This document shows positions 22,753-50,468 of a DNA stretch of 64,000 bases, in pieces (the stretch's first letter is position 1; every line of letters starts with the position of its first letter). The stretch covers positions 10,883-74,882 of the forward strand of contig JAZUKH010000046.1 in NCBI GenBank assembly GCA_045643185.1, read 5' to 3'. Under the pieces are notes generated by a model. The model made no database searches. It was given only the letters and a program-made list of their open reading frames with translations, and was not told the origin of the DNA. The stretch comes from Myxococcota bacterium (GTDB lineage Bacteria > Myxococcota_A > Bradymonadia > UBA4248). The position numbers and the translations under genes are program-made.

Positions 22753-22755
22753 ACA

Positions 22756-33950: not shown

Positions 33951-33977
33951 AAAATTGACAATTTAAGAGGTTTGAAC

Positions 33978-35342
33978 ATGAAAAAATATTTATTAGCCAT
34001 CGCATTGTTGAGCTCGATCGCCCTCTGCGTGGCTTGTGACGACGACAACTCGGAAGAAAAGGGCGCGACCTGCTCGCCCGACTTATTCAAGGCCTCGTGC
34101 GCGGACGAAACGCACATTTATCAGTGCCAGGACGGCGATATCGTGTCGGTGCAGTGCGGCGCTAACGAGGTTTGCTCGAACAACGCGTGCAAAGCTGAGT
34201 CATCCAAGCCGAGCACAGGGTCGGACGAGTCTGGAAAACAGGGCGAGGATAAGAAATCGCCCACGTCCTCAGAAGGCGACAAGTGCGGCGCGGATTTCGT
34301 TGCCAGCTGTGATGCTGCGGGCAATTTGGTGACGTGCATCGACGGCGAAGTGAGTGTCGAAGCCTGCTCGAATGGCGAATACTGCTTGCTTGGTAAATGC
34401 CAGGGCTCGTGCGAACAGGGCAGTGACTTTTGCCTCGACGAAAAGACCGTCATGATGTGCATTTCGGGCAAGTATTACAAAGGCAATTGCTCCGACGGCT
34501 GCGCCAATAACCGTTGCGTGAACCCCAATGAACAGCTGGGCGGCGACGACGAACCCGAAGGCCCGGCGTGCGAACTCGGTACAAAGCCATATTGCGACGA
34601 AGATGGCACGCTCGTGAGCTGCGAATACTGGGGCGAGCCGATGGTCGTCAAATCGCAGTGCGTTTCGGGCACCAAATGTCAGGATGGCGTCTGCGTCATG
34701 GAAAACGCCGATCGCTGCGTCGGCAATGTCTGCAAGGACTTCCACACGCTGCTCAAATGTGAAGATGGCGTCGCCACCGAGTCCAAATGCGGCGAGGGCG
34801 AGGTTTGCTTATCCGAACAATGCAAAAAGATGAGCGGCGTCGATTTTTGCGAAAATGATGACGAATGCGCCGATGACGAAGTCTGCCGCGACAGCCTTTG
34901 CTACAAAAAAGCCCAGTTCGACATCAAGATCGGCTCGGCATGCGACTCTGGCACGTTCCAGGAATACTGCGAAAACGGCATGGAAGTGAAGTGCGATCCT
35001 TACGAGGACTTCGTCGTCACCAAAAACAGCTGCGAAGGCTACAACGGCTGCAGCATGATCGTCCAAAAAGCGTACAATCCCGACCCGAAAGCCACGCCCA
35101 AGCTCATTCGCAACGCGATCTGCCGCGGCACCGACAGCGACCTCGCCTATTGCAGCCAGCACATGGGCGTCGTCTACAATTCGTGCCTCAACGTCGAAGG
35201 CGTCGGCATCATGAGCGGCTTCTCGTACTCCTACACCAACGCGTGCATCTACGGCACCGACGGCCAGCCCGTCTTCTCGTTTGCGCGCGATCAGACGTCC
35301 TGTACCGGCCTGTGCGACGATTCGACCGGTCTTTGCGAATAA
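33978..35342 (+). CDS. Cysteine-rich repeat lipoprotein (member of the Cys-rich lipoprotein family)
   Basis: Lipobox MKKYLLAIALLSSIALCVAC; repeated C-x-C-x-G-x-C modules throughout. Confidence 0.65.
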   Translation: MKKYLLAIALLSSIALCVACDDDNSEEKGATCSPDLFKASCADETHIYQCQDGDIVSVQCGANEVCSNNACKAESSKPSTGSDESGKQGEDKKSPTSSEGDKCGADFVASCDAAGNLVTCIDGEVSVEACSNGEYCLLGKCQGSCEQGSDFCLDEKTVMMCISGKYYKGNCSDGCANNRCVNPNEQLGGDDEPEGPACELGTKPYCDEDGTLVSCEYWGEPMVVKSQCVSGTKCQDGVCVMENADRCVGNVCKDFHTLLKCEDGVATESKCGEGEVCLSEQCKKMSGVDFCENDDECADDEVCRDSLCYKKAQFDIKIGSACDSGTFQEYCENGMEVKCDPYEDFVVTKNSCEGYNGCSMIVQKAYNPDPKATPKLIRNAICRGTDSDLAYCSQHMGVVYNSCLNVEGVGIMSGFSYSYTNACIYGTDGQPVFSFARDQTSCTGLCDDSTGLCE

Positions 35343-35363
35343 ATAGGTCGTTTGGGATTTGGG

Positions 35364-35437
35364 AGGGGGAAGTCTCCCCCTACGCGGCTATTGGCATCAT
35401 CGCCAATACGCCGCTACCCCTTCGCCTGGCGGGGCCT
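35364..35437. repeat. REP/MITE-like intergenic repeat, copy 5 (inverted)
   Basis: GGGGGAAGTCTCCCCCTACGCGGCTAT-TGGCATCATCGCCAAT-ACGCCGCTACCCCTTCGCCTGGC. Confidence 0.85.
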
Positions 35438-35466
35438 TTGACCCGGTTGAGGTGCGACGTATTGTA

Positions 35467-35499
35467 AAAAAACGCGGCTTTTGGCCGCGTTTTTTTGTT
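35467..35499. terminator. Rho-independent terminator
   Basis: AAAAACGCGGCTTTTGGCCGCGTTTTTTTG hairpin plus T-run. Confidence 0.7.
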
Positions 35500-35588
35500 G
35501 TGAGAAGGCCAAAACATTGTAGAAGAGTCAAGTTGTTTGGCACGAGACGGTGCCGTTCGTAATCCACCTAAAATTTTGGAGTGAAAAC

Positions 35589-36893
35589 ATGCGCGTCGTA
35601 GATCTTATTGAAGCAAAACGTGATGGCAGAACGATTCCTGGAGCTGACATTCGTGAGTTTGTGAATGCCGTTGTTCGCAAAGAAGTTCCGGAATACCAGA
35701 TCGCCGCCTTTTTGATGGCGGTGTATTTCAAGGGCATGGAACGCGACGAACTGGTTGCGTACACGGATGCCATGCTTCACAGCGGCGACACGATGTCGTT
35801 GAAAGGGCTCGGCAGCCACTTCAAAGTGGATAAGCACTCGACGGGTGGCGTGGGCGACAAAGTGTCGTTGACGCTGGCGCCTATGGTGGCTGCGTGCGGT
35901 CCGGTGATTCCGATGATCTCGGGACGCGGCCTGGGGCACACGGGCGGCACGCTCGACAAACTTGAGTCGATTCCCGGCTACCGCGTCGATCTGAACGAAA
36001 ACGAGATCGAAGGCGCGATCAACGATTGCGGTTACATCATTTCCGGCCAGACGGGCTCGCTCGTGCCGGCTGACAAGATCTTTTATGCGCTTCGCGACGT
36101 GACGGGCACGGTGCCGTCGATTCCGTTGATCGCGGCGTCGATCATGAGCAAAAAACTGTCGGTGGGCTTGAACGGCTTGGTTTTGGACGTCAAAGTCGGT
36201 ACGGGTGCCTTCATGAAGACGCAGCAGGACGCCCAGCTTTTGGCCGACACGATGATCTCGATCGGCAACGCGATGCAGTGCAACACGCGTGCGTGCATCA
36301 CGAGCATGGATCAGCCGCTGGGCGTCGCCGTCGGCAACGCCAACGAGCTTATCGAAGCGATCGAAATGCTCAAAGGCAACGCGCCAAAAGATTACGAAGA
36401 GATCTGTTACGCGCTCGGCACCGAAATGCTGTCGATCGCCAAGGGCATTTCGCCCGACGACGCGCGTGACGAACTCTCCAAAGCCATTTCGTCGGGCCGT
36501 GCGCTCGAGTGTCTGCGCAAAAACGTTGCGGCTCAGGGCGGCGACGCCCGCATCGTCGACGATTATTCGCTCCTTAACGTGTCTAAGACCACGACCGTCG
36601 TCAAAGCGGCTCAGTCGGGTTACGTGTGCGGCTATAACTGCGAACAGGTCGGTAAAGCCAGCTGCGTGTTGGGTGGCGGCCGCGAAGTTGCCGGGGCCCC
36701 CGTCGATCACTCCGTCGGGCTCGAAGTCCTGCACAAGATCGGTGACAAGGTCGAAGCTGGGGCGCCGCTCTTCAACGTGTATTATCACGACGAGGCGAAA
36801 GCCGAAAAAGCTTGTAAGATGCTGCTCGACGCCATTCAGATCGGCGACGCCATGCCTCAGCCTAACCAGTTGATCCGCGACATTCGCCGTTAG
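35589..36893 (+). CDS. pdp: Thymidine/pyrimidine-nucleoside phosphorylase
   Basis: VDKHSTGGVGDKVSL and SGRGLGHTGGTLDKLESIPG motifs; start at MRVVDLIEAKRDG. Confidence 0.85.
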   Translation: MRVVDLIEAKRDGRTIPGADIREFVNAVVRKEVPEYQIAAFLMAVYFKGMERDELVAYTDAMLHSGDTMSLKGLGSHFKVDKHSTGGVGDKVSLTLAPMVAACGPVIPMISGRGLGHTGGTLDKLESIPGYRVDLNENEIEGAINDCGYIISGQTGSLVPADKIFYALRDVTGTVPSIPLIAASIMSKKLSVGLNGLVLDVKVGTGAFMKTQQDAQLLADTMISIGNAMQCNTRACITSMDQPLGVAVGNANELIEAIEMLKGNAPKDYEEICYALGTEMLSIAKGISPDDARDELSKAISSGRALECLRKNVAAQGGDARIVDDYSLLNVSKTTTVVKAAQSGYVCGYNCEQVGKASCVLGGGREVAGAPVDHSVGLEVLHKIGDKVEAGAPLFNVYYHDEAKAEKACKMLLDAIQIGDAMPQPNQLIRDIRR

Positions 36894-37010
36894 TGCGTTA
36901 AACGGAGCCATGTTGGCGCCACGTCGTCGCGGCGCCACTCGGTTGAGATGGTTAATTGATACAAAATATTAATAAATAAAGAATGGTACGATCCATTACC
37001 AGGGAGAGTT

Positions 37011-37760
37011 ATGAAAAAGATCATTCTTATGACAGTGCTTTGTGGCATGCTCTTGGTCACAGGCTGCGCAAACGACGATTCATCCAATGATTCCGGGGCT
37101 GCAGGCAACGACGCTTCGACGACAGATAACAAAGATGACGGCAAAACGCAGTCTGGCGACGACGGCAAAACGCAGTCTGGCGACGAAACGACCGAAAACT
37201 ACAGTTTTACGGACGTGTCGACGACAGAGTTCTCGTTTTCTGAGCTCAACCCCGCCTTTCAAATGGATGACGGCTATATTTACATCATGAATGCGGACGG
37301 CAGTCGCAGTAAAACCGTCAGTAACTGGGTGCTCAGCCATGACTATCGAAATATTCTGGCATGCGGCTTTTCAGCTCAAATCAAAGTTGGCAGCCAGATG
37401 AATTATTCCGGTCTTCAACTATTCAAAAAAGACAGCTACGATGATTATGAATTTGACGTCTATTCGGACGGCAAATTTGTCGTCAAAGATCCCCAAAAAA
37501 CTGTTTTGACATTGCAGGCGGACGCCTCTTTCGTCAAAGTTGGTGAATTTAACAAACTTCAAGTGACGACCGCTGACTCAGGCAACGTTCTCGTTTATGT
37601 CAACGACCATCTCGTGCTGACCATTTCCTCTCAAGAACTCGCCTTTAAGCTCACCGAAGCTAATAAACTTGCGGTTTTATACAATGTCAAAAGCACAGCC
37701 ACGAGTGCAGAACCCGCTGAAGCCTGGGTCAAGATGGAAAACATCGAGCAACAGAAATAG
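37011..37760 (+). CDS. Hypothetical lipoprotein
   Basis: Lipobox MKKIILMTVLCGMLLVTGC; internal 24-nt duplication (DDGKTQSGD x2). Confidence 0.55.
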   Translation: MKKIILMTVLCGMLLVTGCANDDSSNDSGAAGNDASTTDNKDDGKTQSGDDGKTQSGDETTENYSFTDVSTTEFSFSELNPAFQMDDGYIYIMNADGSRSKTVSNWVLSHDYRNILACGFSAQIKVGSQMNYSGLQLFKKDSYDDYEFDVYSDGKFVVKDPQKTVLTLQADASFVKVGEFNKLQVTTADSGNVLVYVNDHLVLTISSQELAFKLTEANKLAVLYNVKSTATSAEPAEAWVKMENIEQQK

Positions 37761-37859
37761 CGTTACAACGGTCACGAAATAGCTCATGACTGGATGATAT
37801 TGCTACTCAGTGTGATGTCTCCCAAAAGTGGGAGACATCACGAATCAATGATTTAATGA

Positions 37860-39197
37860 TTATTCAGTCCAACCGGATAATTCAAGGGCACCATTATTAA
37901 TACCGAAAGTGCAGTATAAGTTAGAAACATTTTCGGGAATGGGTGCAGTACCGCAATGGGTGAGCGCTTCAGCGACGGTCATATTTTTCGTCGTATCATT
38001 TTGGCACAGATCGTCATCAGAACCTTTGATTTTGATTGAAGCATAACGCTGGCAGATAGGCATCTGTTCATCAATGAATAGAAGATCCCACAATTGATCG
38101 CGATATTTTTCATTTTCTCCAGCATCAGCCAGATCATCGCCACCCAGTATTCTGTAATAATAAGTATTTCCGTCAATCTTACGGAAATACGGATCATTAT
38201 AGCAATAGGCATTTAAGCAATACTTACCGGTTTTGCATTTAGCTTTATGGCAAAGGCATTCTTCAGCGGTACATTTGGGAATACCTTTGACGATTTCGAA
38301 TCCCTCGGGAAGGTCTTTGAGCGTCGTACGATCGACGCACTTGTCGCGTCTGCAGACTGCTCCCATCGGACAAGTATTTTCGCCGCATTCACAGCCATTT
38401 GGGTCGATACAATAGTTGACCATTTTATTTTCTTTTGAAGGCACGCAAATATATTTTTCATTATATTCACGACCGTCGCAAGTGCAGCCCTGAGGTGTGG
38501 GTGAATAGCCATTCGTGCATTCGAGCGGTTCACAGACTTCATCTTTTGTAATTGTTTTGCCGTAACAATTACATTCGTCTTTAAAACACACGAGGCTGTA
38601 ATACATATTTTTATACGGTTTATGTCTGCAGGCCAGGCCACGTCCCGTGACAGGCGAGCCAGCACAAGTTCCCCATTTTCCAGAGCAGCCCATGTTAGAA
38701 TAAACCGTGATCTTTCCGCAAGGACAGCCATCAGACTGCGTGCAACCGATATCATAACGATCTTTTGAGATTTCCCAGCAGGAATAGCCTGTGAGAGAGC
38801 TATCAATGAGTGTATCGCCGCATTTACAGACACCATCCGTACAAACGCCGTTCATCGGACAGGTCACGTCACCACATTCACAACCTTCAGCGTTGTCGCA
38901 CGAAACACTTTCGCTTGAAGGTTGCGCAACGGGGGCTTGGGGCGCCATGTTGGGGGCCATTTCACGCGGTGCGGGCGCTTCATCCGTCGTATCCTGAACT
39001 GCGTCATGATCCACAGCTTCTGTGGCGTCTTGCTGAGCTGCAACATCCTTATCAGCTTTGTCTGCCGCAGCTTTGTTGTCTGCCGCAGCCTGGTTGTCTG
39101 TTGACGCTGGGGGCGCGTTATCTGTTTTGGTGCCACAGGCAGACAAAACGAGTAGCAGAGAACAAGCCGCGATCGGTGATAAAAACTTTGTTTTCAT
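37860..39197 (-). CDS. Cysteine-rich repeat lipoprotein (family member)
   Basis: Lipobox MKTKFLSPIAACSLLLVLSAC at the internal ATG; dozens of Cys in repeated modules. Confidence 0.6.
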   Translation of the reverse strand: MKTKFLSPIAACSLLLVLSACGTKTDNAPPASTDNQAAADNKAAADKADKDVAAQQDATEAVDHDAVQDTTDEAPAPREMAPNMAPQAPVAQPSSESVSCDNAEGCECGDVTCPMNGVCTDGVCKCGDTLIDSSLTGYSCWEISKDRYDIGCTQSDGCPCGKITVYSNMGCSGKWGTCAGSPVTGRGLACRHKPYKNMYYSLVCFKDECNCYGKTITKDEVCEPLECTNGYSPTPQGCTCDGREYNEKYICVPSKENKMVNYCIDPNGCECGENTCPMGAVCRRDKCVDRTTLKDLPEGFEIVKGIPKCTAEECLCHKAKCKTGKYCLNAYCYNDPYFRKIDGNTYYYRILGGDDLADAGENEKYRDQLWDLLFIDEQMPICQRYASIKIKGSDDDLCQNDTTKNMTVAEALTHCGTAPIPENVSNLYCTFGINNGALELSGWTE

Positions 39198-39478
39198 AAA
39201 ACTCCTTATGCGAATCGATAACCATGTCACACAAGGCCAGTGTGACCAAACGAGCGACGTTTTTTGAAACATTTTATGCCATTTAACAAGAATAATCGCG
39301 GTCCGAAATCGAAAGTTGCACCTTGACGCTTGCAAAGGCGAAAATATTTGGTATAAGCAGCGTTTCTGCTAACACTTATGACGCGGCGCGTTATGGTATT
39401 GCAGATGATCAAGCAGGTGAAAAGCGCGACTGCGCTTTGAAGCAAGCCAAATTGACTGTTTTTTATGTAGGAGATTAC

Positions 39479-40318
39479 ATGAAACGCGTTGTTTTACTGA
39501 TTCAGGTTTTACTTTTCGTGATGTTGGCAAGCACGAACGTGTATGCGCAAGATGAGTACGTTCAGTCAGCTCAAGAAGATTCAATGTTCACGAATGAAAG
39601 CGGATCGATCGCAGAGTATGACGCATCGATCGCAAATGACGATATTCCAACTGAGTCAGACAGTATTGACAGCACTTCAGAGAATGCAGACTTGACGTCT
39701 GTCGACGATTCGTTATCCATGAACGAATTGGATCAGCAGATCCCGTTGTGGAGACCCGGTTTTTCGATCAGCGGAAAAATTGGTCCTACGTTCTCGGTCG
39801 CGGGAATTCTTTGGTTAAATGTTGGCTATGGTGGTCTTCAAGGCAGCGTTGAACTTGGTTACCACTGGGATATTTTTGGTTTATATTTGAACCAACAGTT
39901 TTCTGGTAACTGGGCATTTGGCACGTCAATAAGTTTTGACGACGTTGAAGACGAAGCAGATTACAACGAGAAAAATAACACCTATCTTGGCGGCTTTGGC
40001 ATGACCGCTCTCGATTTCCGTTGGTTTATTAATGCGTCTGAACGCCTAAAAATCTCGTTAGGCTTTGGTTTGGGGTTTCAATATCAGTTGAATGTCAAGA
40101 AAGAGGTCGTTACCGAATATGATGAAAATGGTGAAGAATATGTCACCGAAAAAAGCGACGGTGGTATCATACCGTTAGCCCGTCTACATTTGGGCATAAA
40201 CTACCTCATGACCCCGAACTTGTCGTTAGGTTTCCGCCTTGATTATTCAGGTTTCTCGCTTTGGTATATTCATTATCACCAGTTTGACCCGTCGTTCTTC
40301 GTCACTTATACCTTCTAA
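39479..40318 (+). CDS. Putative outer-membrane beta-barrel protein
   Basis: Signal peptide; alternating amphipathic strands; C-terminal ...YTF aromatic terminus typical of OMP barrels; RBS TAGGAG. Confidence 0.5.
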   Translation: MKRVVLLIQVLLFVMLASTNVYAQDEYVQSAQEDSMFTNESGSIAEYDASIANDDIPTESDSIDSTSENADLTSVDDSLSMNELDQQIPLWRPGFSISGKIGPTFSVAGILWLNVGYGGLQGSVELGYHWDIFGLYLNQQFSGNWAFGTSISFDDVEDEADYNEKNNTYLGGFGMTALDFRWFINASERLKISLGFGLGFQYQLNVKKEVVTEYDENGEEYVTEKSDGGIIPLARLHLGINYLMTPNLSLGFRLDYSGFSLWYIHYHQFDPSFFVTYTF

Positions 40319-40483
40319 GGCGTATTTTACATGACGGCTTGGTAGAGACGCCCGTCTCTACCGTATCGCGCGTCTCTAGCAGGCTTACCGTTCCTCGCCA
40401 TTGCCATTATTTTATGCTAAAACATTTCTAGATCGTTAGCGACGTGCGATTCGCACGTCGCTCATGGTCTGTGTGATGGAGGT

Positions 40484-42067
40484 TTGGCAATGGGTTTGTT
40501 TGTTAATCCAACGGAAGCTTTGTTGAGAATGGGCGTTCGCTCGAGAATTTATGTCGATAAATCGATGTTGATTCACGAGCTCAATCAGCTTTTGAATACG
40601 GAAGAACGCTTCGTGTGCGTATCACGTGCGCGCCGTTTTGGCAAGTCGATGGCTGGTGCCATGATTGCCGCCTATTACAGCAAACTCGCCAAGTCGCGCC
40701 CCATTTTTGAAAAGCTCAAGATCGCGCAGACGTCCGATTTTGAAACGTATCTTAATCAGTTTAACGTTATTCACATCGATATTAACGCGTGTTATTCGAG
40801 TTCAACGCGTCATGAAGACATTGTGCCGTTGTTTACAGCGAACGTGCGTGAAGAACTCCAGGAACAATTTCCAAATTGTGGTATCAACGAACGTGATGCA
40901 CTCGACAAGTGCATTATGAAAATTTATTCAAGAACAGGCGAACAATTTGTATTGATTCTTGATGAATACGATGTTTTGGTGCGCGAAAAAGTGAATGCAT
41001 CGATTTTTGATTCGTATTTGGCTTTTCTCAATGCGATGTTTAAAAATGTAAACCTGGCACCTGCATTTGCACTTGTATATTTGACAGGCATTTTGCCCGT
41101 CGTGCGCGATAAAATTCAATCCAAACTCAATATGTTTCGTGAATATACAATGATAGAGGCTGATCAATTCACTCCATATATAGGATTTAGCGAGGATGAA
41201 GTAAAATCGTTATGCCAAAAGCACGATATGAGTTTTAGCGATTGTAAACGTTGGTATGATGGTTATAAGCTCTATGGTCATAGTTTTTATAATCCATGTT
41301 CTGTTGTGAATGCCATGGTTTCACATCGTTTTGGAAGTTTTTGGACGCAAACAGGATCATATGAGGCACTTAAACAATATATATTAATGAATTTTGAGGG
41401 CATTCGTGATGATGTGTTGACGATGATTGCAGGTGGAAGTGTAAGCGTGAATGTGACGAGTTTCATGAATACCATGACCGATTTTCATACCAAAGACGAT
41501 GTTTTTACCTATCTTATTCATCTTGGCTATCTTGGCTATGATCAAAAACTCCAACGATGTTTTATCCCAAATCAAGAAGTACGTCAGGAATGGATTAATT
41601 CTATTCAAACAAGTTCAGATTATGCCCAAGCGCTTTGCATTGTAAAACATTCTAAAGATTTATTAGATCTTACGATCAATGGCGATGAAAAAGCCGTTGC
41701 TCACGCTATTGACGATGCTCATACCGAACTTGTATCGAATTTACAATATAATAATGAAGGTTGTTTTCAGAGCGTGATTCGCTTCGCCTATTTTTACGCT
41801 AATACACGCTACACTGTGATTTCTGAGTTGCCTGCTGGCAAGGGGTACGCTGATATTGCGTTTATTCCTTATATCCCCAATACGCCAGCGATGATCGTTG
41901 AACTCAAGCGCAACAGCTCCACCGAAACAGCTCTGACGCAGATCGAAAACAAACAATATGATAAAGCCCTTGAACATTATCAGGGCGATCTATTATTTGT
42001 CGCCGTGAATTATGACGAAAAGACGAAAGAACACACGTGTGAGATTAAACGGTTTGTGAAAGAATAA
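40484..42067 (+). CDS. AAA-ATPase-like (PF09820-type) plus C-terminal PD-(D/E)XK nuclease protein; intact paralog of 20950-22480
   Basis: YVDKSMLIHEL...SRARRFGKSMAGAMIAAYY N-terminal signature; C-terminal GKGYADIAF...IVELKRN PD-(D/E)XK-like motif. Confidence 0.65.
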   Translation: MAMGLFVNPTEALLRMGVRSRIYVDKSMLIHELNQLLNTEERFVCVSRARRFGKSMAGAMIAAYYSKLAKSRPIFEKLKIAQTSDFETYLNQFNVIHIDINACYSSSTRHEDIVPLFTANVREELQEQFPNCGINERDALDKCIMKIYSRTGEQFVLILDEYDVLVREKVNASIFDSYLAFLNAMFKNVNLAPAFALVYLTGILPVVRDKIQSKLNMFREYTMIEADQFTPYIGFSEDEVKSLCQKHDMSFSDCKRWYDGYKLYGHSFYNPCSVVNAMVSHRFGSFWTQTGSYEALKQYILMNFEGIRDDVLTMIAGGSVSVNVTSFMNTMTDFHTKDDVFTYLIHLGYLGYDQKLQRCFIPNQEVRQEWINSIQTSSDYAQALCIVKHSKDLLDLTINGDEKAVAHAIDDAHTELVSNLQYNNEGCFQSVIRFAYFYANTRYTVISELPAGKGYADIAFIPYIPNTPAMIVELKRNSSTETALTQIENKQYDKALEHYQGDLLFVAVNYDEKTKEHTCEIKRFVKE

Positions 42068-42142
42068 ATAATCAATTGTACTTTGGAGGTCTCGAACGCG
42101 TGTGAAATATTGTGCAGCGTGATGGTGCTGACTGGGAAAAGC

Positions 42143-42169
42143 AAAAAGGCGGCATAAGCCGCCTTTTTG
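42143..42169. terminator. Bidirectional terminator between convergent genes
   Basis: AAAAAGGCGGC-ATAA-GCCGCCTTTTTG. Confidence 0.75.
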
Positions 42170-42233
42170 CTGTAAGCGTTAATAAGTCATTTGAATAATA
42201 AAGAGCATCGTTTATACGAATGTTATTCTCGGT

Positions 42234-45200
42234 TCATTCTTGGGGAACACAAACATCGTCGGGGGAACAGACAGAACCTTCCGGACAGTCAAAGTCCCCC
42301 TCACAACCACATGTACGATCGTTTAAGCAAATATGACCATTCGCATTGCTTGAACAATGGGTATTTTCTGTGCATTCACCTTCAACACAAATATTGTTGG
42401 AACAGATCGTAGTGTCCGGACAGTCATTGCTCGAATTGCAGCCACATGTATTGTTGCTTAGACAAGCATAACCATTCGCGTTGCTCGAACAGTGAGATGA
42501 CGTATTGCACTCTACACAAGCGGAATGGTTTGTATTCGCGTATGGTGTTGGTTCTGAACACGCTGAACAGCTTGTGTCGGTTGAACCGGTTGAAATGGTA
42601 TTATCAGAACATTCAACACAGGATCTGCCGTCTGCTGAAAGCATAGATCCACTATCACAACTTGTAACTTTGCAAACATTGTTTTGGCATTCGACTGCTG
42701 CCACACCGTTTCCTGCAGTACAGTGCGTGTTTTCTGAACATTCGACACAAGCGGTGTGATCATCATTCGCATGGGGTTTGGTTCCAGTGCATGCTGAGCA
42801 GCTTATACCCGTCGTCGAAATGTGATCCGTGGGACAAGTTTCGCATTCACGCTTGGATGTGTTGGGGCTAGAACCCGGTGTGCAAGCATAGACTTTGCAA
42901 ATACCAGAGACACAGTCTGTGGAAACGCTATTTGCTATTTCTAAACATTCAGAAGCTTCGACACAGCCTGTTTTTATGCAAATCTTCGTGTCGTCGCCAG
43001 TTAATGAATATCCGGTATTGCAAGAATACACACACTTGTTGGCGCTGTTACATGTCCCCGTGCCGTTATCGATGGTGCAGTCTGTATCTTCGGTACAGCC
43101 CGTCTTTTCGCAAGTTTTGTGATCGGAATCAGTTACTATTGAATAACCAGCATTGCATGAATATACGCATTGATTAGCACTGTTACATGTACCGGTACCA
43201 TTCGTAATGGTACAGTCACTATCACTTAGACAGCCAACTTTATTGCACGTTGAACCGTTCAAGGTATAGCCGGGGTCGCATGAATAATTGCAAGTATGTG
43301 AGCTGCTGCAAGTTCCGGATCCAAAAGTAATTGGACATTCTGCGTCATTAACGCATCCTGTTTTTTCACAGATATTTCCGTTTAATGTATAACCAGGATC
43401 ACATAAGTAATCACAGGTATTGGCACTATTGCAAATACCCTTACCATGGTCTAGTGAACAGTCATTATCTGATGTGCATCCTGTTTTTTCACAAGTATTT
43501 TCATTTAATGAATAACCGGGTTTACAATTTTCAACTTTACAAGAGCCTGTTTCGCAGGAGACTGACAATACAGCGGCAGCGCCTCCCAATCCTTCGGTGC
43601 TTGTCGAACAGGTGACATTGCAGGCACCGCAATGTGCCAAGGTGGCAGGTTTGTCACTGGCTTGGGTAACACAGGTTGAACCACACAACGTTGTTCCGGC
43701 ACCGCAACTGGTTGTACATTTGCCATTTGAACAAATGGTGCCGACGTTACAAATTTCACCTTGGTCTAAGGGCCCCGTGGCACCGCAATGATAGTTGTCT
43801 GTTTTGGCATTCACGCATTGAATACCGGAGGCTGTATCAGAATTACTGATGTTCACAAATCCATCGCCAGTGCATTGGTATTTACAGGTTCCATCAACAC
43901 ATGAAGCAACTGCAGTATTGATCGGTTTATATGTATTACAAACAAAACCACAAGCACCGCAGTTATTGGTGTCGCTTGCGTGAATATCGATACAGGCTTT
44001 TCCGCTCGAGGTTGAGCATAAGGTTTTGTCTTCTGGACATGTATTTAATTCACAATTGCCATTAATACAGGCTTTTCCCTGAGTTGAACAGTTCTTTAAT
44101 GTTGTTCCGCATTCAGTGTTGCTGTCAGCAATACATTTCCCTGCATTAAGGTGATAACCTGGCGTGATACAAGCGGTTGCGACACACTGGTTATTCCAGC
44201 AGGAACCACCATTCCAGCCCGCGGTGTCAGAACACTTATATTCGCTCATACCACAGTTATCTTCGTTACTTTTTTTGCAGGAAGCCGTGGCATTATCATA
44301 GTATTGATCTGAACCGCAGTTTGCTTTGCATTCGTTATTGATAACGGCATAGCCTTCTTTACAAGTTTGGACAAAACATTCGTTGTTGTTACAGGATCCT
44401 GTACTCCAGTTAGAAATATGCGCATAACATTTGTAACCTTTCATACCGCAGTTATCTAGGTTGCTCGTTTTACAAGTGACATCGTAATACTGAGTATCGT
44501 TACAACTGGAAACACAGGTATTGTTATTAACGGTATAGCCATCGTTGCATTGAGAAACTGAGCATTTGCCCGCTGAACATTTGACTGTTTTGGAGTTTTT
44601 GATCTCATCCGAACAGGCATGTCCCGTGGCACCGCAATTATTGACATCATCGGCAATGCAGCGTGCTTGTTTATTATCGTAATGTTGTCCAACGGAGCAG
44701 TCGGAAACGCATTGTTTTCCGTCAGAAGAGGGTTTGAAGCCGGATCCACATTCTGTCACAACGCAAACATTGTTAGAACAATTGCCTGTTATCCAATTAG
44801 AAATATGGGTTGAGCATTGATAGCCTTTCATGCCGCAGTTTGCGACGTCACTGGTCGCGCAGGCACCCGTTGAACTGTCGTAATATTTCGTCGTATCGCA
44901 GTTTGCTTTGCATTCGTTATGGATAACGGCATAGCCTTCTTGGCAGGTTTGGACAGAGCAGATGTTGTTGTTACAGGTTCCTGAACTCCAGTTAGAAATA
45001 TGCTCAGAACACTTGTAACCTTTCATACCGCAGTTATCGGTATCGCTCGTTTTGCAAGTGACATCGTAATACTGAGTATCGTTGCAACTCGAAACGCAGG
45101 TATTATTGTTAACGGTATAACCCTCGTTACATGCGGAAACTGAGCATTTACCAGAAGAACAACTTACGGTGTTAGAGTTTTTGATTTCATCTTTGCAGGC

Positions 45201-46145
45201 ATGGCCTGTGGCGCCGCAGTTGTCGACATCATTGGCAACGCATTTGGCTTGTTCGCTGTCGTAATGTTCATCCACCGTGCAGTTGGAAACGCACTTATTA
45301 TCCGTAACTTTATAGCCGGTCTCACATGCTGAAACGGTACAAATACCATTTATACATGAGCCATCTGTCCATTGGGCCACGTTATCTTTGCATACATAGT
45401 CAGTGGCACCACAATTGAATATATCATCGGGAACACAGCTTTGTGCATCATTGTCATAGTGTTGGCCTTTTTCACAGGCAGATACACACGTTTTTTTATC
45501 TGTCGCTGGTTTAAATCCTTGTTCACATTGATCAACAATACAAAGCTCATTTTCACATTTGCCACTAACCCAGTTGGTGATAAAATTCTCACAGCTTGAG
45601 GTGTCTTTTTCTGTGCATTGTTTAACAGGTTTTCTACAATGAAATATATCTCCACTTAAAGCACAGGTTTGATAGTTATTGGGGCAGATGTTGTACTTAA
45701 AAGCATCCGGAAATACGCTTTTTTCTTTGCAATCATTTCTATCTGTGCAAAGACCATCGATATAACCTAATTCAAGGTTTTTGTTGTTGTTAAAAAGATT
45801 TTGATAAGTTGAATATTTATAGATGACTTTTCCATTGTATACATATTCGCCAATGTTGTTTAATATTGGATATATTTTCTTTTCGTCTTGTGTAATTGGA
45901 TTGCAATTTTTTAGATCTGTTTCATCTAATTTACATAAATAATGATCGTTTCCATCAATATCGTACACATAAATTCGTGGCGGGCATGCGACGATCTCTT
46001 CACTCGTGTCATCAACATAGGTGTCATACAGAGCACTGTCCCACGAGCACCCACTCATTCCCAGGGTTGCAACGGTTGCCAGAACAGCCAGAGGCAGCCC
46101 TACATGCCTTGGTTTTGACTGGAATACACGCCTGCGATATTTCAT
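42234..46145 (-). CDS. Giant (~1300 aa) cysteine-rich repeat lipoprotein with EGF-like modules
   Basis: ATG at 46143-46145 with GGAGG RBS (the ORF track starts at an upstream TTG); lipobox ...LGMSGCSW; ~200 Cys in C-x-C..GY.L.G..C modules; 582-bp internal direct repeats. Confidence 0.7.
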   Translation of the reverse strand: MKYRRRVFQSKPRHVGLPLAVLATVATLGMSGCSWDSALYDTYVDDTSEEIVACPPRIYVYDIDGNDHYLCKLDETDLKNCNPITQDEKKIYPILNNIGEYVYNGKVIYKYSTYQNLFNNNKNLELGYIDGLCTDRNDCKEKSVFPDAFKYNICPNNYQTCALSGDIFHCRKPVKQCTEKDTSSCENFITNWVSGKCENELCIVDQCEQGFKPATDKKTCVSACEKGQHYDNDAQSCVPDDIFNCGATDYVCKDNVAQWTDGSCINGICTVSACETGYKVTDNKCVSNCTVDEHYDSEQAKCVANDVDNCGATGHACKDEIKNSNTVSCSSGKCSVSACNEGYTVNNNTCVSSCNDTQYYDVTCKTSDTDNCGMKGYKCSEHISNWSSGTCNNNICSVQTCQEGYAVIHNECKANCDTTKYYDSSTGACATSDVANCGMKGYQCSTHISNWITGNCSNNVCVVTECGSGFKPSSDGKQCVSDCSVGQHYDNKQARCIADDVNNCGATGHACSDEIKNSKTVKCSAGKCSVSQCNDGYTVNNNTCVSSCNDTQYYDVTCKTSNLDNCGMKGYKCYAHISNWSTGSCNNNECFVQTCKEGYAVINNECKANCGSDQYYDNATASCKKSNEDNCGMSEYKCSDTAGWNGGSCWNNQCVATACITPGYHLNAGKCIADSNTECGTTLKNCSTQGKACINGNCELNTCPEDKTLCSTSSGKACIDIHASDTNNCGACGFVCNTYKPINTAVASCVDGTCKYQCTGDGFVNISNSDTASGIQCVNAKTDNYHCGATGPLDQGEICNVGTICSNGKCTTSCGAGTTLCGSTCVTQASDKPATLAHCGACNVTCSTSTEGLGGAAAVLSVSCETGSCKVENCKPGYSLNENTCEKTGCTSDNDCSLDHGKGICNSANTCDYLCDPGYTLNGNICEKTGCVNDAECPITFGSGTCSSSHTCNYSCDPGYTLNGSTCNKVGCLSDSDCTITNGTGTCNSANQCVYSCNAGYSIVTDSDHKTCEKTGCTEDTDCTIDNGTGTCNSANKCVYSCNTGYSLTGDDTKICIKTGCVEASECLEIANSVSTDCVSGICKVYACTPGSSPNTSKRECETCPTDHISTTGISCSACTGTKPHANDDHTACVECSENTHCTAGNGVAAVECQNNVCKVTSCDSGSMLSADGRSCVECSDNTISTGSTDTSCSACSEPTPYANTNHSACVECNTSSHCSSNANGYACLSNNTCGCNSSNDCPDTTICSNNICVEGECTENTHCSSNANGHICLNDRTCGCEGDFDCPEGSVCSPDDVCVPQE

Positions 46146-46357
46146 GATGACCTCCAAAAGGGTTTAACTGTGGGTGAAATGCCGTAAAACTTTCAAATTT
46201 TCTCCAATTCAGAACGAATTAGTTACCAAAACACGATTCTACATTATACCGTTTATTCATTTTATATGGCAATTGATTTCGGCTGTTCTCGAGTTACAGT
46301 TCAGCCTCATTGCCAGCGCGATGTTATTATCTCAACCGGGGCATGAATCATAAAAGC

Positions 46358-46392
46358 GCCGCCGTATGCAATAGGCGGCGCGGCGAGCCGTA
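46358..46392. terminator. Terminator hairpin downstream of the 46436-48514 gene
   Basis: GCGCCGCC-GTATGCAATA-GGCGGCGC palindrome. Confidence 0.55.
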
Positions 46393-46435
46393 TTCGCGGA
46401 GCGAATAGGCGCGCCTAAAAATTAAAAAATATAAA

Positions 46436-48514
46436 TTAATGACACGCAAATTCGATGCAGGTGATGCAAGAATTCTGACATTTTCCGCAGTTTTTGAAGT
46501 CATCACGTAAATCTGCTTCGCAACCATTCGTGGGTTGGCCGTCGCAATCAGCCCAACGGTGGAAGTAATCGTCACCCATGTATTCATAAATTTCGTCTGT
46601 CTCGCAGGTCAGAATGGGGGTGCCATCCTGGCATTGGACATGGGTGACATGCAATACGGTATCGGTTGTGAGATCGACATCACATGCGCCGCAATGATGT
46701 ATATCCGTTTTGAGATCGACAAATTCAGTGCCGCACTGGGTGTAGCCTGCGGGCACGTCCAAGCATGTACCTTCAAAACAGGTGTGGTCGCCGCAATCGA
46801 TGTTGCAGTCGCCGCAATGGTGGGAATCTGTTTTTAGATCGACGCAGCCGGCACTGCCGCAAGACGTGAATTCTGGTTCGCATTGACAAGCCCCATCGGC
46901 GCAGCTTTGACCCTCGCCGCAATCGATGCTGCAGTCGCCGCAATGTTGGGGATCTGTTTTTAGATCGACGCAGCCGGCACTGCCGCAAGACGTGAATTCT
47001 GGTTCGCATTGACAGGTTCCGTCGGCGCAGATGGCGTTGGACTGGCACTGGTTGCCGCATGCGCCGCAATTGAGGCGGTCTGTCTTGATGTCGACGCAAA
47101 GATCGTTGCAATGTAGCCAACCGCTGTTGCATACATCGCAGACGCCATGGATACAGGCTTTGGGGCCGCAGTCGTTGCCGCATGCGCCGCAGTTGTTCTG
47201 GGTCAGAAGGCTCGTTTCGCAGCCATTGCTGATTTTGCCGTCGCAGTCGGCATAATTTTCCGCGCATTGACCTTCACAGTTGAGCCAGTGCTGTTTGCTC
47301 AGGTCGAAACAGGTCGTTTTAGAACACCTGGTCTCATTGGCTGCGCACTGAATCTCGCAGCTGCCGTCAATGCAGACGAAGTTTTCGGGACATTTGTTTC
47401 CGCATGCGCCGCAGTGATCTGAGCTGATACGGGTGTTGGCTTCGCAGCCGTTGGTGAGGTCGTTGTCGGCATCGCACCACTCATTTTGACATTCTGTACA
47501 GGCGCTGAGATGCCAGATCGACAGGTTGGCTTCGCAGCCGTTGTCGGCATTTTGGTCGAGGTCGCAGAAGCCGGCTGCGCAGGCTGTGCAGTCGTCATTG
47601 AGATGAACGAGGGCTGCGTTCGTTTCACAGCCATTGGCGAGCGTCTTGTCGAGGTTGCACCATCCGGCTTCGCAGCCGTCGCAGGTCGCGTTCAGATGAA
47701 GTGTCTGGGCGTGGCTCTCGCAGCCGGTCGAGGCTTTGTTGTTGTCCATGTCGCACCACCCTTCAAGACAGGTGTCGCAGCTGGCGAGGTTTTTGGCTGA
47801 AAGATGGGTGCACTGATGGCCACAAAGCACGTTGCCCTGATCGGCACGGCATTGAGAAAGACACTGACCTTCGATGCAGAATTCGTATGCCTGACAGGCA
47901 ATTCCGCATGCGCCGCAGTTTTCGCTATCTTCTTGGGTGTTGGTTTCGCAGCCGTTGGCCGGGTTGGCGTCGCAGTTTTGATAGCCGGATGCGCATGTGC
48001 CGCACGTGCTGTAATGCAGTTCTGAGGTTGTTTTTTCACAGCCATTGCTCAAATCGTCGTCGAGGTCGCAGTAACCCTCGTTGCAGTCAGAGCAGGTCGT
48101 GTTGAGATGAAGTTTGTGGGCGTCCGCTTCGCAACCTGTGGCGGTATTGTTATCGAGGTCGCACCAGTTCTCAACGCACGTGTCGCATTTGGCGTAGTGC
48201 TGACGGGCGAGTTGAATGCAGTGATCGCCGCATTTGGCATAGCCGTCTGAGGCCGGGCACTCGGAGGCGCAGACCCCTTGGGCGCAGACTTGGCCGTCGT
48301 TGCAGCTTCTGCCGCACTGGCCGCAGTTTGACTGGGTGTTCAGGTCGGTCTCGCAGCCGTTTGAACGCGTGTGATCACAGTCTACGAAGCCACTTTGACA
48401 TGTCTGGGGCTCATCTTCGGATGAAGTAGAAGGTTCGTGACTTTCATGACACGCGGAAAGATATATGACACTGATGATGCAGATATTTATGAATAATTTG
48501 TTATGATATTTCAT
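46436..48514 (-). CDS. Cysteine-rich repeat lipoprotein (692 aa), family member
   Basis: Lipobox ...VIYLSAC; repeated NCGACGNxC / HCGDCxIDC / LHLNxxCxxCxxGxCDLDxxxxNGCE modules; 114-bp tandem duplication. Confidence 0.7.
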   Translation of the reverse strand: MKYHNKLFINICIISVIYLSACHESHEPSTSSEDEPQTCQSGFVDCDHTRSNGCETDLNTQSNCGQCGRSCNDGQVCAQGVCASECPASDGYAKCGDHCIQLARQHYAKCDTCVENWCDLDNNTATGCEADAHKLHLNTTCSDCNEGYCDLDDDLSNGCEKTTSELHYSTCGTCASGYQNCDANPANGCETNTQEDSENCGACGIACQAYEFCIEGQCLSQCRADQGNVLCGHQCTHLSAKNLASCDTCLEGWCDMDNNKASTGCESHAQTLHLNATCDGCEAGWCNLDKTLANGCETNAALVHLNDDCTACAAGFCDLDQNADNGCEANLSIWHLSACTECQNEWCDADNDLTNGCEANTRISSDHCGACGNKCPENFVCIDGSCEIQCAANETRCSKTTCFDLSKQHWLNCEGQCAENYADCDGKISNGCETSLLTQNNCGACGNDCGPKACIHGVCDVCNSGWLHCNDLCVDIKTDRLNCGACGNQCQSNAICADGTCQCEPEFTSCGSAGCVDLKTDPQHCGDCSIDCGEGQSCADGACQCEPEFTSCGSAGCVDLKTDSHHCGDCNIDCGDHTCFEGTCLDVPAGYTQCGTEFVDLKTDIHHCGACDVDLTTDTVLHVTHVQCQDGTPILTCETDEIYEYMGDDYFHRWADCDGQPTNGCEADLRDDFKNCGKCQNSCITCIEFACH

Positions 48515-48614
48515 CGTTATGATAACTTGTTATGAGAAATATAACATATCCTACGCATTTCAACGTTATTTGTAATGCTGAATCATCGTAAGATCTAGTC
48601 GATAAAATGCAAAC

Positions 48615-50318
48615 TCAGTGATGATGACAGGTTTGTTCATAAGTGATTGGATTTGTGCTTAGGTTTTCACAGCCGTTTTCATCATTTCCGTCGCAGTTTT
48701 CATAGGTTGAATATGTATTCTCACGGTCCCAGCATGTCGATTTGACATGGCCATTTTCACAGGTGAAGGCTTTGGCATGCATGGCATCTAGGTCGTATTT
48801 TTTATACAGGTCAATGTCGCATTCACCGCAATGTTTGATATCTGTTTGGAAATCAGCACAATCACCGGAGCAGAAATGAAGTCCTGACGGGCATTTGCAG
48901 GTTCCGGAGAGGCATGAAGCTTCACCGCATGCGTTGTTGCATGTCCCGCAATGATCGTGATTGTTAAGAAGATCGGTTTCGCATCCGTTGACCGGGTCGC
49001 CGTCGCAGTCGGCATGATCGGGCATACAGGTGCCGCTGCAGTCGGTCCAGTGTCGCTGAGTCAGATTGACGCATTCATTGTCGCACGGTGTTTCGTAAGA
49101 TCTGCAAGGCATCGTGCATGTGCCAGCATCGCAAGTGTCCTCAGGACGACATTCTTGGCCGCATGCGCCGCAGTTGAGGGAATCGCTGGCGATGTTGGTT
49201 TCGCAGCCATTGGAAGCCTCGTTATCGCAGTCGGCATAACCGGCAACGCAGGTGCCGTCGCAGTCAGTCCAGTGAAGCGGCGTGAGATCGACGCAGTTTT
49301 CACCGCATCCCGTCTGGTCGAGCGGGCACTGACGGCACTGGCCGTGGTAGCATTTTTCGCCGATTTCGCAGGCGTGACCGCATGTGCCGCAATTTACGGT
49401 ACTTGTTGAAGCCTCGTCTTCGCAACCATTGGTGAGGTCGTTGTCGGCATCGCACCAGCCCGGGGCGCAGGCGTCACAGCTGGACAGGTGGAGCACTGTC
49501 ATGTCGGCCTCGCAGCCGTTGCTGGCGTTTTGATCGAGGTCACAAAAGCCGGCTGCACAGGTTGCGCAGTCGGCGTTCTGGTGCAGATATTCGGCCGAAG
49601 CTTCGCAGCCGTTTGTGGCCATGTCGTGGTCGGCATCGCACCAGTTGATTTGGCATGTATCGCACGAAATCAGGTGGTTTTGAGTCAGATCGACGCAGTT
49701 TTCGCCGCAGACGGCTAGGCCGTATTCGGCAGAACAGAGGGATGCGCATTCGCCGTGAACGCAGTATTCAAAGGCGTGGCATTGGTTTCCGCATGCGCCG
49801 CAGTGATCGCGATCGGCGGTCAGTTTTTGTTCGCAGCCGTTTGTGGCATCGCCGTCGCAGTCGCCGTAGCCGGGCTGGCACGTGTCGCATGTGCTCTGAT
49901 GACGGTCGGTCAGGGCGCTTTCGCAGCCATTGGTGAGGTCGTTGTCGGCGTCGCACCAGCCGCTTTCGCAGGCATCACAGGCTTGGTTCAGGTGATGGGC
50001 GTAGGCGCTGAATTCGCAGCCGTTGGCCATATCGTGGTCGGCATCACACCAGCCCTCGAGGCAGGTTGAACACATCACCAGGTGGTTCTGAGCGAGGTTG
50101 GTGCATTTTCCCCCGCACATGAAAAAGCCTTGTTCTGCCTGGCAGTCGACGATGTCGCAGCAGGATGTGCCGCAAATTTGTTTGCCTTCCGGGCATTTCG
50201 TGTCGCAGGTGTCGCACGAAGGCGTGTCATCGGGCGTCTTGGAGGCTTCGTCGCTTTCGGATTCGCATCCCGCCAGGAAAAGTACAGTCAGAGCAAGAAT
50301 AATGGGGATCTTTTTCAT
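48615..50318 (-). CDS. Cysteine-rich repeat lipoprotein (567 aa), paralog of the preceding gene
   Basis: Lipobox MKKIPIILALTVLFLAGC; same module types as the 46436-48514 product. Confidence 0.7.
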   Translation of the reverse strand: MKKIPIILALTVLFLAGCESESDEASKTPDDTPSCDTCDTKCPEGKQICGTSCCDIVDCQAEQGFFMCGGKCTNLAQNHLVMCSTCLEGWCDADHDMANGCEFSAYAHHLNQACDACESGWCDADNDLTNGCESALTDRHQSTCDTCQPGYGDCDGDATNGCEQKLTADRDHCGACGNQCHAFEYCVHGECASLCSAEYGLAVCGENCVDLTQNHLISCDTCQINWCDADHDMATNGCEASAEYLHQNADCATCAAGFCDLDQNASNGCEADMTVLHLSSCDACAPGWCDADNDLTNGCEDEASTSTVNCGTCGHACEIGEKCYHGQCRQCPLDQTGCGENCVDLTPLHWTDCDGTCVAGYADCDNEASNGCETNIASDSLNCGACGQECRPEDTCDAGTCTMPCRSYETPCDNECVNLTQRHWTDCSGTCMPDHADCDGDPVNGCETDLLNNHDHCGTCNNACGEASCLSGTCKCPSGLHFCSGDCADFQTDIKHCGECDIDLYKKYDLDAMHAKAFTCENGHVKSTCWDRENTYSTYENCDGNDENGCENLSTNPITYEQTCHHH

Positions 50319-50397
50319 TATGCAGAATCTGAAATGTCGCGTGTTGTCATTCAGCACGACTGTTAATAATATATAAGGATGCTTTTTATATAATATG

Positions 50398-50468
50398 GGC
50401 GCGGGCTATCGGCGTTGCCGATCCGCCCGACGGGCGCGGGCTATCGGCGTTGCCGATACGCCCGCTTT
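50398..50468. repeat. 35-bp direct repeat x2, each containing the palindrome ATCGGCGTTGCCGAT, downstream of lon
   Basis: GGGCGCGGGCTATCGGCGTTGCCGAT occurs at 50398 and 50433. Confidence 0.7.

Follow-up and report, generated by a model that had tools for sequence, protein, structure and literature searches.

The MXAN_6577-like/Stig1/CPL1-like cysteine-rich module is among the commonest building blocks of large lipoproteins in Myxococcota, with thousands of members, and for its bacterial form there is no solved structure, literature or known function. Anchored, periodic cysteine-rich coats (~10-12% Cys, CxxC-rich) encoded by multigene families are found in eukaryotes, such as the variant-specific surface proteins (VSPs) of Giardia, a gut organism, and the immobilisation antigens of ciliates, and the chlamydial outer-membrane complex contains the lipoprotein OmcA and OmcB, which are cysteine-rich and disulfide cross-linked. 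The cysteine-rich repeats of TraA in Myxococcus xanthus have been proposed to form a rigid stalk that presents a PA14 head (PMC3325183). In plants, STIG1 signals via the pollen receptor kinase LePRK2 and phosphatidylinositol 3-phosphate (PI3P) (PMC6275014), and CPL1 of Cryptococcus is a secreted cysteine-rich, TLR4-dependent effector that activates TLR4 (bioRxiv 10.1101/2021.09.02.458767). Here we describe six genes, A to F, for cysteine-rich lipoproteins in a 64,000-nt stretch of DNA (the window) from a Myxococcota bacterium of the Bradymonadia (assembly GCA_045643185.1, contig JAZUKH010000046.1, positions 10,883 to 74,882).

The window places the module outside the classical myxobacteria, in a deep lineage that is probably associated with the gut, beside three further families of cysteine-rich lipoproteins and one putative stalk-plus-enzyme protein (F). 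It also contains a lineage-specific four-cysteine variant of the module, and the composite architecture of protein C is new. The result is one of cataloguing and not a new kind of system. The six genes are:

33978-35342, plus strand: gene A, 454 aa
37860-39197, minus strand: gene B, 445 aa
42234-46145, minus strand: gene C, 1303 aa
46436-48514, minus strand: gene D, 692 aa
48615-50318, minus strand: gene E, 567 aa
59993-63436, plus strand: gene F, 1147 aa

All six open reading frames (ORFs) had been picked out in an earlier note on this DNA and were recovered with the same coordinates and lengths. They are real genes, as A-E have homologues elsewhere and F contains a Pfam-supported enzymatic domain. 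At each N-terminus, a basic n-region and a hydrophobic h-region precede a lipobox-like motif, as judged by regular expression and visual check (positively charged n-region, hydrophobic h-region, then [LVI][ASTVI][GAS]C). LSAC, found in B and D, and LAGC, found in E and F, are canonical lipoboxes, whereas MSGC of C and CVAC of A are near-canonical, in agreement with the signal that had been claimed for all six; by this pattern A-F are predicted to be bacterial lipoproteins (Lgt/LspA substrates). The motif was found in six of six cysteine-rich genes versus one of the 30 other genes (37011-37760; hypergeometric p = 3.6e-6). In all six proteins the 25 residues after the lipid cysteine are acidic, with 4-9 Asp+Glu versus 0-2 Lys+Arg. 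Both observations support export and anchoring.

Cysteine accounts for 10.6% of A, 9.0% of B, 12.2% of C (159 Cys in 1303 aa), 14.7% of D, 14.3% of E and 13.6% of residues 22-390 of F; the remaining window genes have 0.3-2.8%, except 28625-29257 with 4.8% and an ORF set apart below (ORF G). The repeat regions of A-F thus hold 9-15% cysteine, and the six genes together cover 11,568 nt or 18% of the window, close to the share of about 20% estimated before. After the lipid cysteine the number of cysteines is even in all six proteins (46, 38, 158, 100, 80 and 60 in A-F), as would be expected if every cysteine were disulfide-paired. The cysteine spacing of the modules is fixed and periodic, and sequence and spacing bear out the description of lipoproteins made almost entirely of Cys-spaced modules. 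Together, the even counts and the periodic spacing are indirect support for full intramolecular pairing.

These proteins had been taken for one expanded family. In a composition-corrected all-versus-all BLASTP comparison of A-F, the sole match was between D and E (36% over 670 aa, E 4e-113), and A, B, C and F matched neither one another nor D/E. The idea of a single family therefore fails: the six proteins fall into at least four unrelated families, with only D and E as paralogues. Joining A and F in a single family was also considered and rejected, as their module profiles aligned with an hhalign E-value of merely 0.0011 and a probability of 21%, which is too weak; the modules of the two may be distantly related. 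The families also span orders of magnitude in size. Searches of 5.8 billion proteins returned at least 3,915 homologues of D at E ≤ 1e-5, about 20 of C, yeast CPL1-like proteins included, and two of A, both of them lipoproteins. For B, 49 relatives (11 at E < 1e-30) were found among 1.84 billion cluster representatives, and at least 33 of the 49 have a lipobox plus linker. A and B are small, near-orphan families on these searches.

The earlier statement that the modules do not obviously correspond to a named repeat family did not survive the Pfam and NCBIfam scores of C, D and E, half of the set: each of these three is a full or borderline member of a family that has a name but is functionally uncharacterised. 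None of the matches is to a well-characterised family with a known function in this lineage, and the description "function unknown" still holds, as the matched families are without a described function in bacteria. Hidden Markov model (HMM) scans with TIGR02232 and DUF4215, the two families that had been proposed for testing, gave no match in A-F at E ≤ 0.1 (NCBIfam and Pfam), and the same was true of TIGR04201 (the TraA-type Cys repeat), the chlamydial Omc families (OmcA/OmcB) and the Pfam family of Giardia VSPs. The C-termini (…CIEFACH, …EQTCHHH, …DVCVPQE) carry no hydrophobic/basic tag of the MYXO-CTERM kind. The repeat of a 2026 "CysRRep" preprint has another spacing (…CC) and does not fit the modules of A-F.

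D scored 150.1 bits against NF041328 (MXAN_6577-like cysteine-rich protein; E 3.7e-44, five stretches, cut-off 100) and 41.6 bits against Pfam Stig1 (PF04885; three stretches, cut-off 24.1), scores that place it in the MXAN_6577-like/Stig1 cysteine-rich family. E reached 82.1 bits with NF041328, below the cut-off, and gave no Stig1 match at E ≤ 0.1; NF041328 had no match in A, B or F. E and the middle part of C are related to NF041328, with scores too low for a family call. The architecture of D is as follows:

47216-48403, minus strand: D residues 38-433, NGCE modules of ~30 aa, arranged in blocks that each end in an NCGACG module (motifs, spacing)
46595-47215, minus strand: D residues 434-640, five canonical Stig1-like modules C.DL.TD..[NH]CG.C...C.....C..G.C (HMM and predicted local distance difference test, pLDDT)
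46788-47030, minus strand: recent in-frame duplication of one 42-aa module of D, 126 nt x 1.9 copies, 94% identical

The consensus of 55 aligned D-family members is a two-part module of ~50 aa, C..GF.DCDG...NGCE..L.....NCGACG..C...NA...C..G.C....C, and D shares with NF041328 the common two-part form C..GF.DCDG...NGCE + NCGACG..C.....C..G.C...C. However, D and E are shorter than their NF041328 relatives, and many of their canonical modules are replaced by C..C..G[WFY]CD.D....NGCE, often without the NCGACG half. The likeness of D to PF04885 extends over the C..DL.TD..NCG.CG..C modules; plant STIG1 is a small secreted peptide with one domain, whereas D is a bacterial lipoprotein with ~20 modules. 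The best Stig1 and NF041328 stretches of D lie in residues 434-640, and residues 38-433 include the lineage-specific four-Cys variant in the form H.(N)..C..C..G.CD.D....NGCE. CxxC density is high in both D and E (2.3-2.6 per 100 aa).

D and E together hold 20 [NDT]GCE and 10 NCGxCG-type motifs. HLNxxCxxCxxGxCDLD is present as well, and D has two copies of HCGDCxIDC. The motifs quoted in the earlier note are therefore present in D/E, as modules with EGF-type spacing are in C, but not all of them are distinctive. NCGACGNxC and HCGDCxIDC are hallmarks of Stig1/CPL1/MXAN_6577-like modules and thus of a named family. The LHLN…NGCE motif, on the other hand, proved to be lineage-restricted: among the 120 best homologues, the four-Cys variant (LHLN..C..C..G.CD.D....NGCE) was found only in D, E, P0002, P0025 and P0081, and it recurs in a 1212-aa protein adjoining P0002 in a related metagenome-assembled genome (MAG). 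The canonical module form was found in 105 of the 120.

Most D homologues are lipoproteins of 800-1200 aa with 11-16% Cys. Among the matches listed, the named ones are almost all proteins of Polyangiales, Myxococcales or "Deltaproteobacteria" MAGs, and their annotations read hypothetical, MXAN_6577-like or Stig1. Of 117 homologues, 36 carry a Cys-poor head of 150 aa or more at the C-terminus and four at the N-terminus, and 77 are all-repeat, as D and E are; precomputed Pfam annotations of the heads included fibrinogen-C, RCC1, SBBP and other beta-propellers. The gene neighbours of a Polyangiales D homologue (a glutaredoxin-domain protein, a glutathione S-transferase and a kinase) gave no pointer to function. 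D is orthologous to P0002 in GCA_045599925.1 (49% identity), and E is 52% identical to the protein directly upstream of the D orthologue there (locus L081). The tandem order is kept at 49-52% identity, so the E-D pair is older than the split of the two genomes. A GC-rich 35-nt near-palindromic repeat (1.9 copies, 50397-50464), different from the repetitive extragenic palindrome (REP)-like element described below, lies between lon and E.

Protein C is a composite of CPL1-like, Stig1/MXAN_6577-like and cEGF-like modules. Its parts, and one site upstream of the gene, are:

45606-46145, minus strand: C residues 1-180, signal peptide, lipobox LGMSGC and N-terminal region (alignment)
44151-45605, minus strand: C residues 181-665, seven to eight ~65-aa CPL1-like repeats (PF21671)
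43536-44150, minus strand: C residues 666-870, Stig1/MXAN_6577-like NCGACG modules (NF041328)
42951-43535, minus strand: C residues 871-1065, five 41-45-aa six-Cys EGF-like modules (spacing, cEGF)
42237-42950, minus strand: C residues 1066-1303, Cys-rich modules of CPL1-like and DUF7107-like type at the C-terminus (Pfam)
46243-46272, minus strand: sigma-70-like promoter match TTGCCA-18-TATAAT, 11/12, ~100 nt upstream of the start of C (consensus match only)

The CPL1-like repeats follow the pattern D..NCGa.G..C......W..G.C..G.C.V..C..GY......C. PF21671 (gathering threshold 27.4 bits) scored 47.9 bits on the whole protein, 81.5 bits on residues 181-665 (six stretches) and 31.2 bits on residues 1066-1303, and had no match in A, B, D, E or F. 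The repeats align module-for-module with a CPL1-like protein of a basidiomycete yeast (P0135; BLASTP with compositional adjustment, E 3e-28). However, fungal CPL1 is small and secreted and has a single Cys-rich domain, at its C-terminus; C, a bacterial lipoprotein of 1303 aa, has seven to eight copies and other module types besides. In residues 666-870, NCGACG-type motifs occur at residues 728 and 838, NF041328 scored 53 bits (residues 702-856), under its cut-off of 100, and Stig1 scored 20.0 bits, also below threshold. The N-terminal region (residues 1-180) has no Pfam match and shares short motifs with C-like proteins (GC[ST][WL]D.. and F.[YF]N.CP....C).

The five EGF-like modules have the spacing C-x4-C-x5-C-x8-C-x5-C-x3-C-xxGY.L. 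The Pfam model cEGF (PF12662, cut-off 26.6), which matches the 41-aa modules of C, scored 36.3 bits on the whole protein and 32.7 on residues 871-1065, where a Sushi-like match was also seen. The EGF, EGF_CA and Laminin_EGF models gave no match to these modules, which have C-x3-C-xxGY.L where the EGF signature has C-x-C-x2-G[FY]-x-G-x2-C. The EGF/laminin-type spacing reported before thus has an EGF-like flavour in part of C, where cEGF passes, and no counterpart in the EGF or Laminin_EGF models. No C-terminal sorting tag is present at the end of the sequence. Tat (twin-arginine) export of C was considered and set aside, as the n-region RRRVF is not conserved in homologues and this route is implausible for a 158-Cys protein. 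Promoter-like sites around C were no more numerous than in shuffled sequences, and the terminator scan was also at background level. A 300-nt internal duplication in the CPL1-like region (44151-45605) is 80% identical; with this block and the 126-nt unit of D at 94%, module-level duplication in the two genes is ongoing.

The features of A, B and F are:

33978-35342, plus strand: A, signal …ALCVAC|DDD, then about six ~45-aa modules C-x6-8-C-x8-C-x9-12-C-x5-C-x4-C (sequence, spacing, module alignment)
37860-39197, minus strand: B, signal …LVLSAC|GTK, a ~90-aa Ala/Asp/Gln/Pro-rich linker, then the Cys-rich body (sequence)
59993-61162, plus strand: F residues 1-390, LAGC|EDD, then six ~54-aa eight-Cys modules, 13.6% Cys (spacing)
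61163-63436, plus strand: F residues 391-1147, Cys-poor head with calcineurin-like metallophosphoesterase and six ~55-aa repeats (PF00149)

The sole Pfam match of A is a weak one to DUF7107, below the cut-off. B matched no Pfam or NCBIfam repeat family, and residues 1-390 of F had no Pfam match. PF00149 scored 28 bits on F (cut-off 21.5), and the Cys-poor stretch of the protein spans residues 695-1147; we read the Cys-rich N-terminal part as a stalk. At the C-terminus of F (62093-63436, plus strand), 3' of the phosphoesterase, six ~55-aa repeats of the form P.VAMD..GNFVVVW.D match no Pfam family and possibly form a six-bladed propeller. Right behind F lies a 22-nt repeat, GACGTGACGTGTCACGTGTCTAC (2.2 copies, 63450-63498), distinct from the REP-like element.

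A search of the PDB by sequence with D and C found no related chain. The AlphaFold2 (AF2) model of D (55-sequence alignment) had a pLDDT of 76.6 and a predicted TM-score (pTM) of 0.39; pLDDT exceeded 90 in residues 430-640, and confidence was low exactly at the variant modules (residues 105-142 and 241-276). For residues 1-400 of C, pLDDT was 75.5 and pTM 0.43, with pLDDT of 85-95 in the CPL1-like repeats (residues 180-400) and 35-73 in the N-terminal region. Both proteins were modelled as strings of short beta-hairpins without a hydrophobic core domain, and the low pTM values are as expected for an extended chain. The best structural neighbours, all weak, were the integrin I-EGF stalk, NELL EGF, TNFR, R-spondin furin repeats, the Cys-rich region of the insulin receptor/ErbB and the Cys-rich domain (CRD) of EphA2. 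Eukaryotic Cys-rich stalks (integrin I-EGF, laminin LE, furin-like, TNFR CRDs, EphA2 CRD) are thus the nearest, though weak, neighbours of the models, and the matches to EGF arrays were non-significant.

The reading that we favour, with about even confidence, is that A-F are exported, acylated, disulfide-locked rods, tethered by an acidic linker and serving as stiff, protease-resistant spacers or as a coat. A signal peptide would export each protein, after which the lipobox cysteine would be acylated, and the acidic, low-complexity linker would tether the protein to the membrane. The remainder would fold as a long chain of small beta-hairpin modules with disulfides within each module, an architecture like that of eukaryotic EGF, furin-like and TNFR stalks, and would project from the membrane as a stiff, protease-resistant spacer or coat. 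In F and about a third of the D-family relatives, a Cys-poor enzymatic or binding head would sit at the end distal to the anchor. We infer the disulfide bonding, rod shape and stalk role from several lines: the stalk role is supported by F, in which Cys modules are followed by a metallophosphoesterase, by the 36 of 117 D relatives with a C-terminal head, and by the precedent of TraA, whose Cys repeats are unrelated. The stalk-plus-head layout of TraA is shared by F and 31% of the D-family relatives; however, TraA has a C-terminal MYXO-CTERM anchor whereas A-F have an N-terminal lipid, neither TIGR04201 nor PA14 is found in A-F, and C, D and E are headless. As C, D and E are all-repeat, their repeats themselves are presumed to be the exposed surface, as a coat or a multivalent adhesin. 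Retention of such proteins is supported by the conserved E-D pair and by the recurrence of C-like tandem arrays in three related MAGs. On a weaker inference, the conserved cluster D-x-D-x-[DN]-x3-N-G-C-E may be a Ca2+ site where modules join. Should the proteins indeed be stalks or a coat, A-F would help define the outer surface of such bacteria, and the module shared with plant STIG1 and fungal CPL1 would be one disulfide scaffold used across kingdoms.

Several points weigh against this reading. A literature search found no paper mentioning MXAN_6577 and no family member with an experiment. By the E. coli rule, A with its Asp at +2 would stay in the inner membrane, and no partner for surface export or sorting was seen near A-F. 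No dsb gene was found among the window genes scanned, and the closest genomes are from the anoxic gut, where oxidative folding needs an anaerobic Dsb route. For the headless C, D and E, "stalk" leaves the binding partner unsaid. The Ca2+ idea is without a profile match, as the Pfam scan returned no EGF_CA, Ldl_recept_a or TSP_3.

Other readings must be set against disulfide-locked stalks or a coat. The proteins could form a variable, protease-resistant surface coat under diversifying selection, a bacterial counterpart of the lipid- or membrane-anchored coats of Giardia and ciliates, with tandem paralogues and module gain and loss supplying the variation. Tandem arrays in the window and four related MAGs, the recent in-frame module duplications (94% in D, 80% in C), the small, fast-diverging families A, B and C, the atypical base composition of C-like genes in every genome examined and the high CxxC density of D and E are all in keeping with it. 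However, no switching mechanism (invertible promoters, homopolymer tracts or silent cassettes) was visible, and A-F, unlike the eukaryotic Giardia VSPs and ciliate antigens, have neither a VSP Pfam match nor a sign of antigenic switching; we consider this reading unlikely. The cysteines might instead serve as thiolate ligands of Zn, Cu or Fe in metal-binding, metal-sequestering or redox-buffering proteins, a role that 9-15% Cys, frequent CxxC in D and E, a habitat that is likely anoxic and one D-family homologue with a MopE-type copper-binding domain (PF11617) would fit. This is very unlikely, as the proteins are exported lipoproteins with an even cysteine count in six of six, the spacing and predicted beta-hairpin ladders are typical of disulfide modules, the matches are to eukaryotic extracellular disulfide families and His is scarce; ORF G, the sole clearly metallothionein-like sequence of the window, is a cytoplasmic protein of quite another appearance. 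Disulfides between molecules, in a periplasmic network that strengthens the envelope as the chlamydial OmcA lipoprotein and OmcB complex does, would suit Cys-rich lipoproteins in a genome of diderm type (the window and relatives show Mla and LptM-like signals), but the Omc families show no similarity in Pfam or NCBIfam, and the regular module spacing and even cysteine counts favour bonds within modules, which makes such a network highly improbable.

The modules themselves may also act on a eukaryotic host or prey as ligands or effectors, with C, D and E as multivalent receptor-binding or immunomodulatory surface proteins of a bacterium associated with the gut. C passes PF21671 and aligns module-for-module with yeast CPL1-like proteins (E 3e-28), D passes Pfam Stig1, and these two eukaryotic families are characterised: CPL1 is a secreted Cys-rich, TLR4-dependent effector (bioRxiv 10.1101/2021.09.02.458767), and STIG1 binds LePRK2 and PI3P (PMC6275014). 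The cattle-gut origin of the closest genomes and the ankyrin-repeat proteins at related MAG loci point the same way. On the other side, what is common to these proteins is a generic disulfide scaffold, with no functional residue known to be conserved, most of the D family is in Myxococcota (Polyangiales, Myxococcales) MAGs whose records have no sign of host association, and there is no sign of secretion beyond the lipid anchor, so we regard an effector role as quite unlikely. A bolder version, which we consider a long shot, is that an uncultured clade associated with animal guts built a eukaryote-style extracellular layer from giant, lipid-anchored CPL1/STIG1-type arrays, in which the CPL1-like giants with foreign-looking third-position GC (C and its tandem paralogues in related MAGs) would share ancestry with fungal CPL1 effectors by cross-kingdom transfer and, beyond a structural role, engage host or protist receptors (e.g., innate sensors of the TLR4 type).

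C, D and E come after lon on the minus strand. An operon of the three with lon was rejected, as the linkage is not conserved in the nearest MAG (L001). In a species-level genome set, Lon is 61% identical to that of a cattle-colon MAG labelled "Proteobacteria bacterium", and the next matches, from many phyla, reach 45% at most, so the organism belongs to a deep uncultured lineage; the closest genomes are from cattle gut, and the lineage is probably gut-associated. The window contains no tRNA and no Rfam match. Three related MAGs also carry C-like genes in tandem:

L082: at the edge of the contig a partial Cys-rich ORF, next an unrelated gene, then a pair of 1202 and 831 aa
L084: two genes of 1449 and 1350 aa
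L088: four genes in a row, with a 190-aa ORF between the second and third

Two loci of related MAGs (L083, 10330-11461; L087, 7918-10542; GCA_045599925.1 and GCA_045599585.1) have genes for large ankyrin-repeat proteins, and for Ser/Thr kinases, close to those of Cys-rich lipoproteins, which hints that the clade interacts with eukaryotic cells.

GC content at third codon positions (GC3) is 0.38 in C versus 0.59-0.74 in native genes; B has an atypical 0.43, and A a native 0.74. The two genes that separate B from C are low as well, so that the four make up one block of low GC3 (0.38-0.46 versus 0.59-0.74). Low GC3 also marks the C-like genes of each related genome examined (loci L082, L084, L087 and L088). 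With its neighbours, the atypical block extends over 37011-46145 (GC3 0.38-0.55) and comprises the lipoprotein gene 37011-37760, B, 39323-40318, 40484-42067 and C. Two genes for a PF09820 "predicted AAA-ATPase", 21326-22705 (minus strand) and 40484-42067 (plus strand), are both in low-GC3 stretches, and in the latter AAA-ATPase_like is fused to PDDEXK_9.

The REP-like element is bipartite, with the core GGCCCTGCCAGGCGAAGGGGTAGCGGCGTATT, a variable, often palindromic spacer, and then AATAGCCGCGTAGGGGGAGACTTCCCCCTC, and it has no Rfam match. Seven intergenic copies were found (3269-3355, 7809-7893, 22650-22761, 33837-33959, 35357-35444, 54675-54758 and 57306-57370), six of them as three inverted pairs, one on either side of 3.4-7.8 kb, one around gene A and one around 54.8-57.3 kb. 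The pair around A is:

33837-33959, plus strand: REP-like element upstream of A
35357-35444, minus strand: REP-like element downstream of A, inverted

Several members had been said to be followed by this element; it flanks only A and lies behind none of B, C, D, E and F, which rules it out as a family marker. A minus-strand ORF, 57156-58505, contains a REP-like copy and is probably spurious; it overlaps 57504-58529 (plus strand), whose N-terminus is, by eye, Gly-rich and Obg-GTPase-like (MRFVDEV…GGDGGKGG).

ORF G (3489-4049, plus strand, 186 aa) is without a signal peptide. Its N-terminus is Lys/Glu-rich and helical with a weak YtxH match, and its 60-aa tail consists of Cys clusters (ECCCCSDDKCCSDDKCCCDDKCCCDDNACKCCDKC…), so that it resembles a cytoplasmic metallothionein-like protein with no relation to the Cys-rich lipoproteins. 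The gene for CDP-alcohol phosphatidyltransferase (54799-55908, minus strand) has, within its 3' end, 4.1 copies of a 30-nt unit (54803-54924, 95% identical), which encode a recurring acidic, Lys-rich C-terminal peptide. A low-GC island at 12183-18395 (minus strand; GC 0.33-0.40, GC3 0.28-0.43) encodes a Pbe/Dnd-type anti-phage defence system and was probably acquired horizontally; it comprises PbeA (14378-16486; 720 bits, E 6.5e-217), a PbeC/DndD-like gene (12183-14168; 264 bits) and two more genes (16483-18395).

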